Shown here one piece after another: positions 356 to 4,965 of a stretch of DNA of 4,965 nt. Positions within the stretch are counted from its first letter, which is position 1. Every line of letters starts with the position of its first letter. The translations under genes and the position numbers were made by a program. Location: IMG/VR virus record IMGVR_UViG_2671180680_000009; one strand, written 5' to 3'. Below the pieces are notes generated by a model, which saw only the letters and a program-made list of their open reading frames with translations, searched no databases and had not been told where the DNA came from. The stretch comes from a virus. Taxonomy: Duplodnaviria; Heunggongvirae; Uroviricota; Caudoviricetes.

Positions 356-1438
356 ATGAAAAAATTAACAGTGGCAATTTCTGCTGTAGCTGCATCAGTA
401 CTGATGGCGATGTCTGCTCAGGCAGCTGAAATTTATAATAAAGACAGTAACAAGCTGGATCTGTACGGGAAAGTTAATGCTAAGCACTACTTCTCCTCTA
501 ATGATGCAGATGATGGTGATACTACTTATGCCCGTCTTGGCTTCAAAGGTGAAACCCAAATCAACGATCAACTGACTGGTTTCGGTCAGTGGGAATATGA
601 ATTCAAAGGCAACCGCGCTGAATCTCAAGGTTCCTCCAAAGATAAAACCCGTCTTGCCTTCGCTGGCCTGAAATTCGGTGACTACGGCTCCATCGATTAC
701 GGCCGTAACTACGGTGTAGCATACGACATCGGTGCGTGGACTGACGTCCTGCCAGAATTCGGTGGTGACACTTGGACTCAAACAGATGTGTTCATGACTG
801 GTCGCACCACTGGTGTTGCAACTTATCGTAACAACGACTTCTTTGGTCTGGTTGATGGTCTGAACTTTGCTGCTCAGTATCAGGGTAAAAATGACCGCAC
901 TGACGTAACTGAAGCTAATGGTGATGGTTTCGGTTTCTCCACTACTTATGAGTATGAAGGATTCGGTGTAGGTGCAACCTATGCTAAATCTGACCGCACT
1001 AATAATCAGGTTATCTACGGTAACAACAGCCTGAATGCATCTGGTCAAAATGCTGAAGTATGGGCAGCTGGTCTGAAATATGATGCGAACAACATCTATC
1101 TGGCTACCACCTATTCTGAAACCCAGAACATGACTGTTTTTGGTAATAACCATATTGCCAACAAAGCACAAAACTTCGAAGTAGTTGCACAATATCAGTT
1201 CGACTTCGGTCTGCGTCCGTCCGTTGCTTACCTGCAATCTAAAGGAAAAGACTTGGGTGCGTGGGGTGATCAGGACCTGGTTGAATATATTGATGTAGGT
1301 GCAACCTATTACTTCAACAAAAATATGTCCACTTTTGTTGATTACAAAATCAACCTGATTGATAAGAGCGATTTCACGAAAGCATCTGGCGTTGCTACCG
1401 ATGATATCGTTGCTGTAGGTATGGTTTACCAGTTCTAA
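356..1438 (+). CDS. nmpC: Outer-membrane general porin precursor, OmpC/OmpF/PhoE family, NmpC/Lc-like (prophage moron porin); 360 aa
   Basis: Start chosen at ATG 356 rather than the ORF-track start at 296. It gives a canonical signal peptide [23 protein letters not shown] with an AQA|AEIYNKD cleavage site, and AAGGG sits 6 nt upstream. The mature N-terminus [17 protein letters not shown], the PEFGGD loop-3 motif, the LAFAGLKF and YGRNYG motifs and the C-terminal ...VYQF (terminal Phe) are hallmarks of 16-strand general porins. Its position next to the Q antiterminator matches the nmpC locus of DLP12-like prophages. The ORF is uninterrupted. Confidence 0.9.
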
Positions 1439-3045: not shown

Positions 3046-3500
3046 TACGCCTCCTGCTTATCGCGCAGCTGCTGGTATTCACAGCTCTGCGGAATTGTCA
3101 GGTGGCAGCCGATATTCATCGCCCAGGCTTCGACTTTGCACAGGAAGATGTACATCTCGCCGGTTTCCAGCTCTGACGTATGGCGGAGGGATTGGACGGT
3201 GGTGACCTCGCCGGACACGACATCTACACGGTCTTTGCTTTCGTAGCCGAGATAGGTGTGCTTCATCGCGTCTTTGACCCACTCAGGCGTAGCGAAGGTC
3301 TTGCCGCGGGCGATGAGATATTCGCTGATCTCCGTGTACCACATGTGGCTGAGCGCGTTCTGCGACAGGCTGCGCTTCTCGCGCCACGGCTTAACCTGCA
3401 GGCGTAAGCATTGCCCGGCATCCAGCAATGGCTGAATCTGCTGGCCGATGGCCGCGAAGTTACCGCGATGGAGTTTGATGCCGTCTACTGGCAGAGTCAT
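3045..3500 (-). CDS. ybcN: NinB/Orf-family recombination protein homolog (YbcN-like), 151 aa
   Basis: Reverse ORF MTLPVDGIKLHRGNF... with GGGAGG 4 nt upstream of the ATG (GGGAGGCCGTATG). The internal SLSQNALSHMWYTEIS segment resembles the conserved core of lambda NinB. It is the first gene of the coupled nin operon. Confidence 0.85.
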   Translation of the reverse strand: MTLPVDGIKLHRGNFAAIGQQIQPLLDAGQCLRLQVKPWREKRSLSQNALSHMWYTEISEYLIARGKTFATPEWVKDAMKHTYLGYESKDRVDVVSGEVTTVQSLRHTSELETGEMYIFLCKVEAWAMNIGCHLTIPQSCEYQQLRDKQEA

Positions 3501-3526
3501 ACGGCCTCCCTAACGGAAACCGCAGA

Positions 3527-3556
3527 ATGCAGAAAATCGCAGGTGCATTTCTGCAT
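3527..3556 (-). promoter_or_regulatory. Inverted repeat upstream of ybcN (candidate tR2-like terminator/attenuator or operator)
   Basis: ATGCAGAAA (3527-3535) and TTTCTGCAT (3548-3556) form a 9-bp perfect inverted repeat with a 12-nt spacer, 27 nt upstream of the ybcN start. Read on the reverse strand it is followed by a T-containing tract (TCTGCGGTTTCCGTT) that is only moderately U-rich. Confidence 0.25.
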
Positions 3557-3764
3557 CTGTGACAAGGTGATGAGTTCAGATTGTGGTCGCATTTAAGTCC
3601 CCTTAAATGCGCAGAAGTCACCGGAGTTGTTCAGGCTCCGATGAGAGGATTATGGCGGATTGATTACGATAAATCAAAACTATCTTGAAGCCAAAACAGT
3701 GATCTTCGCTTTAAAAACCTTGTATACTTTCACCTAATCACAGCCAGAACTATGGATCTAACCA

Positions 3765-4142
3765 ATGACCAACAAAGAAAACAAAGATAAATATATTAAC
3801 AAGTTCAAGAAAGAGCTTTCAAAATATATACAACCAACTGCTGGAGTGGACATTCAATTATTTAACTCTAAGGATGGTGGTGGTGTAATTAAAGCCACTT
3901 TGAATAGAAGTGGAAAAAGAAAATCATCTATTGCTGGTAATTTTACTAAATTAGGTGAGGCAATTACCTCGAGTGGGCAGAGGGTTTTTGGTGGTGATCT
4001 ATCAAATGTGAATTTTTACGGAACAAATACGATTTTTGATGGAGATACAATATTTTTAATTAAATCACCTGATTCAGAGGAGTGGTCATCACAAAAAGCT
4101 TCCAAAGACGTAGAGGGCATCGTATTTGGAGGGAAAAAATGA
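3765..4142 (+). CDS. Hypothetical protein, 125 aa, soluble, Lys/Gly-rich, no recognised domain
   Basis: Uninterrupted ORF in a strongly AT-rich island. N-terminus is highly charged (MTNKENKDKYINKFKKELSKY), with no signal peptide or TM segment. Gly-rich stretches (SKDGGGVIK, RVFGGDLSNVNFYGTNTIFDGDTIF, GIVFGGKK). No obvious SD; a possible -10 TATACT at 3723-3728. I do not recognise the family. Confidence 0.5.
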   Translation: MTNKENKDKYINKFKKELSKYIQPTAGVDIQLFNSKDGGGVIKATLNRSGKRKSSIAGNFTKLGEAITSSGQRVFGGDLSNVNFYGTNTIFDGDTIFLIKSPDSEEWSSQKASKDVEGIVFGGKK

Positions 4143-4224
4143 TTAACATTACTACTAAGGATGCACTCAAGTCAGTGGTGAAGTAAGAGATCTAGTAATT
4201 CTTCTTGAAACTGATGGAAAAACG

Positions 4225-4566
4225 GTGTCTGATTATTTGCAGCCAATCCCTCCCAAAAAAGATACACACTGGAGCATGATTTTCATTCCGGTAGCAATTT
4301 ATATACTACTTAATCTTGTATACATTATTGCTCACCCATTATTTCCTGAAAAATATCTAAAAACATCAACATCTATATTTCTATTCATTTCCTTCATATT
4401 AAGTGCAATAGTAGCATATTTTGTTTTCCATAAGCATAAATCTGCCACTCTATCCATATGCAGCTTAGTGTTCTTAGTGTTAATTGTAGGTGCTAACGTA
4501 GGGTTTATCAGTTACAGCGACCTAACACAAAAAGCGACGCAAAAATTAGATAGTTTGTCTAAATAA
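4225..4566 (+). CDS. Hypothetical small integral membrane protein with three predicted TM helices (113 aa from GTG 4225, or 96 aa from ATG 4276)
   Basis: Hydrophobic stretches IFIPVAIYILLNLVYIIAHPLF, SIFLFISFILSAIVAYFVF and LSICSLVFLVLIVGANVGFISY are separated by short charged loops. Same strand and composition as the upstream ORF, 82 nt downstream of it. Start is uncertain: GTG 4225 has a weak GGA 6 nt upstream, and the first in-frame ATG is at 4276. A hairpin GCCATGC-7nt-GCATGGC (4574-4594) follows the stop. Confidence 0.5.
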   Translation: MSDYLQPIPPKKDTHWSMIFIPVAIYILLNLVYIIAHPLFPEKYLKTSTSIFLFISFILSAIVAYFVFHKHKSATLSICSLVFLVLIVGANVGFISYSDLTQKATQKLDSLSK

Positions 4567-4673
4567 TTATGTTGCCATGCGAAGTATGCATGGCTGCATG
4601 TCTGCCTTCCATTTAAAATGGGCTAAGACCTATAACCCTAAATATTATTCTTTATTATCTTCTTTACCACTTC

Positions 4674-4904
4674 GGTGATGCTGCCAACTTACTGATTTAG
4701 TGTATGATGGTGTTTTTGAGGTGCTCCAGTGGCTTCTGTTTCTATCAGCTGTCCCTCCTGTTCAGCTACTGACGGGGTGGTGCGTAACGGCAAAAGCACT
4801 GCCGGACATCAGCGCTATCTCTGCTCTCACTGCCGTAAAACATGGCAACTGCAGTTCGCTTACACCGCTTCTCAACCCGGTACGCACCAGAAAATCATTG
4901 ATAT
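4674..4904 (+). mobile_element. IS1 5' portion (left terminal inverted repeat plus start of insA), truncated at about IS1 coordinate 231
   Basis: GGTGATGCTGCCAACTTACTGATTTAGTGTATGATGG... matches the IS1 left end as I recall it. It is in the same orientation as the IS1 tail at 1-61. Similarity stops abruptly after ...CACCAGAAAATCATTGATAT (4904). Confidence 0.9.
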
Positions 4905-4932
4905 TGTCAGCGCCAGTGATATAAGACGGTAA
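4729..4932 (+). pseudogene. insA: insA remnant: first ~58 codons of IS1 InsA followed by 9 unrelated codons and a stop
   Basis: [58 protein letters not shown] matches InsA as I recall it (with one substitution, A for T in QLQF[T/A]YTAS), then diverges to IVSASDIRR-stop where InsA should continue MAMNGVGCRA. No insB-encoding sequence follows within the window. Confidence 0.8.
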
Positions 4933-4965
4933 TTCGCCATTTGGATTGTCCGCTCCACCCAACAT

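Follow-up and report, generated by a model that had tools for sequence, protein, structure and literature searches.

The window analysed here, the whole 4,965-nt stretch of the virus record IMGVR_UViG_2671180680_000009 (IMG/VR; Caudoviricetes), is a DLP12/lambda-like prophage remnant bounded by insertion sequence (IS) elements. It contains an AT-rich cassette of 965 bp (positions 3680-4644) with two genes on the plus strand, here called open reading frame (ORF) 1 and ORF2. We report that it is a 'moron', a small and mobile piece of cargo in a variable slot of lambda/DLP12-like prophages, where it is read against the early-right operon. Profile comparisons of its proteins place the enterobacterial pair within a much wider two-gene family, as one of its branches; the family has no name and no characterised member. 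We see an even chance that the pair is an uncharacterised module for exclusion or abortive infection, made up of a putative sensor and a putative membrane effector, unrelated to RexAB and inactive in the window.

ORF1 (3765-4142, + strand) is intact and encodes a soluble, basic protein of 125 amino acids (aa) with an isoelectric point of 9.5, identical to WP_000182282.1. Its coordinates are exactly those given in an earlier reading of the stretch made from its letters alone, hereafter the original prediction. The protein carries the motifs of its family, namely YINxF, GTN, LIK, W and D. ORF2 (4139-4566, + strand) is a pseudogene in the window. Its ATG overlaps the TGA of ORF1 (ATGA), and a GGAGGG Shine-Dalgarno sequence is found at 4127-4132. 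The intact form has 142 aa and occurs with the same ATGA-overlap start in 46 complete E. coli genomes and many other assemblies. It consists of a conserved N-terminal region of about 35 aa, modelled as beta-beta-alpha, followed by three long transmembrane (TM) helices; the N-terminus is presumed to be cytoplasmic, the charge distribution of the loops alone not being decisive for the topology. Alignment of the window to E. coli A7 places a 1-bp deletion at 4163/4164 (+), where one G is lost (GATGGC to GATGC) and the frame shifts after ORF2 codon 8. The frame from 4139 stops after 15 codons (TAA, 4184-4186), with the other 133 codons out of frame. The original prediction had placed a gene for a small three-TM membrane protein at 4225-4566. 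The three helices were recovered by TM prediction, but the true gene starts at the ATG at 4139, and the GTG at 4225 is simply the first start-like codon 3' of the frameshift.

The same G deletion is common to four other loci of our comparison set (L033, L040, L042 and L056), and is therefore a lineage allele rather than a read error. L039 has the identical IS1 junction, yet its ORF2 is intact. Separate ORF2 frameshifts were found in L041/L042, at codons 38-41 in an A6 run encoding PPKKD, and in L064, at codons 52-55. In total, at least three independent events have inactivated ORF2, and ORF1 is without a frameshift in the same sample, a pattern that would fit a costly effector. An IS1 interrupts ORF1 in strain CV839-06 and in L069. 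The downstream starts in the ORF2 of the window have no good ribosome-binding site. Because of this, and because the start and the most conserved domain of ORF2 are severed from the TM part, the function of the module in the window, whatever its nature, has most likely been lost.

The limits of the cassette were set by composition and homology. The GC content falls from 0.53-0.59 (3200-3600) to 0.33-0.37 (3700-4200), and is 0.346 over the cassette as a whole, against about 0.50 in the flanking phage genes. The AT-rich island described in the original prediction is thus real, but its limits are not 3640 and 4673. The cargo starts at 3680, because homology to K-12 DLP12 and phage 82 extends to 3679 and ends there. 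It ends at 4644, because 4645-4673 (- strand) is the 3' end of replication gene P, about 29 nt in length, cut by IS1; this was seen by alignment to L001, where P occupies 9047-9760, and the remainder of P has been removed by the IS1 insertion. On the left side, a ylcH/orf33 homologue of 31 codons (3497-3592, - strand) opens the nin-side operon as its first small gene and matches orf33 of phage 82 and ylcH of K-12. The conserved lambdoid region upstream of it (3593-3679, - strand), with 81-91% identity to many lambdoid phages, forms the left backbone boundary. Both are phage backbone and lie outside the cargo. The phage 82 record X92588 annotates its counterpart of 3593-3679 with an inverted 'regulator-binding' repeat and with putative -35 and -10 signals, which suggests a possible internal nin-operon promoter.

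The slot occupied by the cassette lies between replication gene P and ylcH-ybcN, and intact relatives have P on the right. The cassette had been described as wedged between the nin genes and an IS1, with the adjoining IS taken as telling architecture. An IS1 does begin at 4674, but the remnant of P lies in between, and the contact with the IS is incidental, gene P being the neighbour in intact prophages. The phage operon to the left was correctly placed on the opposite strand (quuD, ylcG, rusA, ybcO, ninE and ybcN, all -). In K-12 DLP12 the same slot holds emrE-ylcJ-ybcK-ybcL-ybcM, and in lambda it holds ren, in the order P-ren-ninB. It was therefore rightly predicted that the K-12 slot has different genes, except that ylcH, which had been counted among them, is common to both. 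What these other cargoes share with the present cassette is the insertion slot, from the replication genes to the ylcH/ninB side; the genes themselves are unrelated, and the present cassette is AT-rich and on the opposite strand. It has the marks of a moron, as it is distinct in base composition and inserted where related phages have neighbouring genes or other cargo. The proposal of a cargo replacement with unrecognised soluble and multi-TM proteins also holds, with no match to either in Pfam, NCBIfam, PADLOC or the PDB and with different slot contents in K-12 and lambda.

All intact enterobacterial contexts examined have the same organisation: genes of 125 and 142 aa, an ATGA overlap, and a strand opposite to the early-right operon. 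The position, from the replication module to the first nin-side gene, is constant in about 20 distinct contexts comprising five sequence types (67-100% identity). The neighbours vary, the replication modules being of the O/P, DnaB-type or IstB-like kind and the nin-side genes of the YbcN-type, NinB or DUF1367 kind. The cassette is at least 99.5% identical across prophages whose adjacent ybcN genes are just 77-86% identical, which therefore indicates recent lateral exchange. Both genes are under purifying selection: in comparisons of the E. coli, Enterobacter and Klebsiella types, ORF1 and ORF2 have ratios of non-synonymous to synonymous substitution rates (dN/dS) of 0.07-0.19, and ORF1 has 0.07-0.08 between enterobacterial variants. 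Close homologues of both proteins were found in Enterobacteriaceae only, and ORF1 is present in IMG/VR prophage contigs. The cassette is absent from lambda, phage 82 and K-12 DLP12. The slot of one enterobacterial prophage (L049, 2665-4348 and 6850-7971) also has a colicin-like pore-former with an immunity-like gene, which adds a conflict-type context for the pair, and a DndB-like gene; this junction of replication and nin genes may thus be a general hotspot for cargo.

Beyond the Enterobacteriaceae, a profile search with ORF1 against 1.84 billion representatives returned 111 proteins at E<=1e-3, the majority of them full-length (120-135 aa), with the shared motifs YINxFR, GGxL..F.GTN, LIK, W and D. 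We surveyed 21 distant loci, 4 from metagenomes and 17 from reference genomes, which span at least seven phyla; the sources are Nitrospira, Gamma- and Betaproteobacteria (Neptuniibacter, Nitrosomonas), Syntrophaceae, Myxococcales, an Acidobacteria-like metagenome-assembled genome (MAG), Synechococcus, Bacteroidota (Bacteroides, Flavobacterium) and others. The gene that follows the ORF1 relative encodes a three-TM partner of 123-154 aa in every one of the 21. These partners are laid out as an N-terminal domain (consensus MKxGxxEGTxEE...Y..P), three TM helices and a basic RFK loop. Overlap of the two genes was seen in 18 of the loci, and in 15 it is of the ATGA type. The distant partners are homologous to the enterobacterial ORF2 (hhalign 97.4%, E 1.5e-11). 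Constant co-occurrence, which the original prediction had proposed as a check, was thus observed both in the approximately 20 enterobacterial contexts and in 21 of 21 distant loci. One metagenomic relative of 447 aa (P0104) has the ORF1-family domain at residues 7-119, an HNH endonuclease domain at 191-231 (Pfam E 1.3e-12) and a C-terminal half of unknown nature; the fusion fits an effector-type swap as in modular defence systems.

Two further observations concern ORF1-related database entries. A protein of 127 aa (P0013, from an ENA contig of 1145 nt) joins a pentapeptide-repeat N-terminus to the last 48 residues of ORF1, with 100% identity, at a DLSNVNF motif; either a chimeric assembly or genuine recombination could account for it. 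Additionally, an exact-sequence look-up returned ORF1, ORF2 and truncated ORF2 in one 90%-identity cluster of 197 members, all named 'hypothetical protein'. The placing of ORF1 and ORF2 in a shared cluster is probably a clustering or listing artefact.

Several of the distant pairs lie among defence or related genes. In Bacteroides (L029, 2966-8916) the pair sits between the Type III restriction-modification genes Mod and Res, all of them on one strand and spaced by 35 and 94 nt. A deltaproteobacterial MAG has the pair 112 nt upstream of BrxA-BrxB, and at two loci the PADLOC candidate systems PDC-M49A and PDC-M14A adjoin it. Other single loci have the pair in an island with BrnA, Gp49/HTH and Ymh genes, near an Xre-MbcA/ParS gene, or in a non-enteric prophage. 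The association of the pair with defence genes is suggestive, and in this small sample it is a hint rather than an established link. The defence or toxin-immunity idea of the original prediction accordingly gains circumstantial support from the conservation of the pair across phyla and from its occurrence near Mod/Res, BrxA-BrxB and toxin-antitoxin genes, but homology to a known defence family was not found.

In the reading that we prefer, ORF1 would be a cytosolic sensor or regulator that contacts the N-terminal domain of ORF2. ORF2 would be the membrane effector, which might permeabilise or depolarise the membrane or block DNA entry, and the module would be expressed in the lysogen from its own putative promoter. 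The logic of a sensor that gates a membrane effector is borrowed from lambda RexA/RexB, in which a prophage likewise transcribes two genes apart from the lytic operons, one for a soluble cytosolic protein and the other for a small polytopic protein of the inner membrane, with about 140 aa. The two systems differ in size and design, ORF1 having 125 aa against 279 aa in RexA, and ORF2 three TM helices and an N-terminal domain against four TM helices in RexB; they also differ in location, as the present cassette is in the P-nin slot and RexA/RexB in the immunity region. The mycobacteriophage prophage defences Butters gp30/gp31 and Sbash gp30/gp31 also combine a cytoplasmic with a small multi-TM protein; these are actinobacteriophage proteins, and no similarity to them is claimed. 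The HNH fusion, the prophage cargo slot, the nesting in defence operons and the recurrent decay of ORF2 all fit a conflict module, and none of them is proof. A broader proposal, to which we give a little less than an even chance, is that the pair represents a new and phylogenetically wide family of two-gene anti-phage systems. In such systems a sensor of about 125 aa would gate a three-TM effector via its 35-residue N-terminal domain, the sensor could alternatively be HNH-fused, and the genes would be carried as prophage cargo in Enterobacteriaceae and nested in restriction-modification or BREX loci elsewhere. In our assessment the protein families are new and the architecture is familiar, and the pair is a testable candidate and no finding yet.

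A number of results weigh against an anti-phage role. Scans of ORF1 and ORF2 with Pfam and NCBIfam gave no match, nor did PADLOC-DB v2.0.0 at E<=10, and PADLOC run on 72 family members gave just stray single matches. Profile searches of both families against the PDB returned chance-level matches only. Fold searches found nothing significant, the model of ORF1 being poor (predicted local distance difference test score 58). The homology and structure-prediction checks proposed earlier thus brought up no match to characterised housekeeping or structural proteins, and nothing usable in terms of fold. A tblastn search with ORF1 through 50,697 deposited phage genomes and 72,556 plasmids found nothing. 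A known or candidate defence gene is close to the pair in just 4 of the 17 genome loci (adjacent in 3, two genes away in 1), one further locus has a weak LeoBC match, and 12 have no PADLOC match among the neighbours tested. The neighbours are heterogeneous, with many housekeeping genes such as those for ThiC, tRNA synthetases and EPSP synthase. Homology to RexA was rejected (ORF1 family A4 against lambda RexA, hhalign probability 0.04%). Finally, strain CV839-06 retains an intact ORF2 behind its IS1-disrupted ORF1, which, barring a polar effect of the IS, speaks against the view that ORF2 is simply a lethal toxin.

Other searches for a known identity were equally negative. Homology of the partner family (A8) to lambda RexB was rejected (hhalign 0.3%; three TM helices predicted, not four). 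A Pfam scan of the 72 family members, and NCBIfam and Pfam scans of the distant partners, gave nothing informative. The matches in PHROGs were phrog_18061 and phrog_16940, both of 'unknown function', with no exclusion or known-function PHROG among them. A full-text literature search by accessions, PHROG identifiers and peptides, whose scope excluded post-2023 defence catalogues, found no paper on either protein. Neither the accessions nor the peptides were found in the DefensePredictor supplements.

The alternatives to a sensor-effector module draw in part on the same evidence. The pair could act in addiction, as a toxin-antitoxin module without any direct part in anti-phage defence, in which ORF2 as toxin and ORF1 as antitoxin would stabilise the carrier prophage or island. 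Two small overlapping genes of co-transcribed type were indeed found, the soluble one first and with the ATGA overlap typical of antitoxin-toxin operons. Their distribution is patchy, their contexts are variable and may adjoin other toxin-antitoxin genes, and ORF2 has been lost repeatedly with ORF1 kept. In their small overlapping genes and patchy mobile distribution, in prophages and defence islands, they resemble Type II-style toxin-antitoxin operons and membrane toxins such as GhoT/GhoS. They differ in that neither Pfam nor NCBIfam gave a match to a toxin or antitoxin family or to a DNA-binding antitoxin domain, ORF1 having no helix-turn-helix, ribbon-helix-helix or AbrB-type domain, and in that ORF2 is larger and has a conserved soluble domain. 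The strong conservation of this N-terminal, putatively cytosolic domain is more suggestive of gating under regulation than of a toxin that is hydrophobic and nothing else. The survival of intact ORF2 in the strain with ORF1 interrupted by IS1 likewise speaks against an addiction module, which we regard as unlikely. Slightly less probable still is an accessory membrane function outside conflict, for example as a small transporter, as a pair acting in envelope stress or signalling, or in lysogenic conversion; the prophage and defence-locus contexts would then be mere hitch-hiking. In favour of it, the genes around most of the distant loci are ordinary ones of metabolism or housekeeping, the 12 of 17 loci without a PADLOC neighbour agree, and the TM region of ORF2 has weak similarities to 7TMR-DISM and VIT1. 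These similarities, however, fall short of the curated cut-offs and involve hydrophobic helices only; the pair has a patchy distribution and has been transferred laterally, and chance hardly explains how a housekeeping pair would come to be embedded between Mod and Res or placed at the head of BREX genes.

A role in the development of the prophage itself, through control of replication, nin-region transcription or lysis timing, would account for the invariant position between the replication and nin/Q genes in the approximately 20 enterobacterial contexts. We nevertheless consider it improbable, given that the cassette opposes the early operon and has a foreign base composition, that it is missing from lambda, phage 82, K-12 DLP12 and all of the deposited phage genomes searched, and that the distant family members are mostly outside prophages. 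That the genes are chance ORFs in AT-rich junk DNA, as their annotation as 'hypothetical protein' might allow, has a negligible probability and is refuted by conservation: the low dN/dS values, the maintenance of the pair across phyla and the strong Shine-Dalgarno sequence of ORF2.

Within the cassette, a putative promoter was read from the sequence at 3699-3728 (+ strand), with a weak -35 box (GTGATC, 3699-3704), an 18-nt spacer and a -10 box (TATACT, 3723-3728). The -10-like box is located about 37 nt 5' of ORF1 and lines up with TATAAT/TATGAT of the Klebsiella-type cassettes. A hairpin lies directly 3' of the ORF2 stop (4568-4600; core GCCATGC/GCATGGC, 4574-4594) and is kept in four cassette types. 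Its minimum free energy is -16.6 kcal/mol on the + strand and -13.3 kcal/mol on the - strand, with z-scores of -2.6 and -3.8, respectively; the Klebsiella-type hairpin reaches -27.5 and -25.9 kcal/mol and has a U-rich tail on the - strand. It is probably a 3' stem-loop or a terminator between convergent transcription units. A consensus promoter/terminator scan called neither the promoter at 3699-3728 nor the hairpin after ORF2. A second, terminator-like hairpin with a T-run (4620-4638, - strand) is located directly 3' of the P stop codon.

The remainder of the window consists of phage and IS sequence. An IS1 end occupies 1-62. The left end of a second IS1, comprising the inverted repeat and the start of insA, occupies 4674-4904 (+ strand), with the inverted repeat GGTGATGCTGCC beginning at 4674. 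This IS1 is itself interrupted at 4905 by non-IS1 sequence (4905-4965), which in L033 runs into an IS21-family element (rve and IstB). IS1 at both ends of the window is typical of an IS-bounded short-read contig from Shigella. The IS1 junction of the window had no match in the complete E. coli genomes of the collection searched, and public records label proteins of this region as Shigella sonnei, which makes this species the likely source of the window and of the frameshifted allele. The window has 99.98% identity to chromosome CP104423.1 (L033). A 96-nt segment 5' of the porin gene, present in the closest relatives L033, L039, L040 and L042, is missing at 237/238, and the flanks of this gap are 100% identical to the relatives on both sides. 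The porin gene, of the nmpC/ompC type, is intact at 356-1438 (+ strand; 360 aa according to the annotation of relatives), and its K-12 DLP12 counterpart nmpC is interrupted by IS5. The - strand gene set consists of quuD, ylcG, rusA, ybcO, ninE, a ybcN-type gene and the ylcH homologue. An Rfam scan of the whole window gave zero matches, and a repeat scan gave nothing notable.

For annotation, the lesson is that the 113-aa 'three-TM protein' of the window is the tail of a pseudogene and not a gene. If an anti-phage role is true, the frameshifted allele would serve as a natural loss-of-function control, and the replication-nin junction of lambdoid prophages, with emrE, ren and the colicin-like pair among its occupants, would be a cargo slot worth mining. 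Should the intact cassette protect against phages, it would constitute a compact system of about 0.9 kb, made from two unannotated protein families, with a range that extends from Bacteroides to Nitrospira to E. coli.

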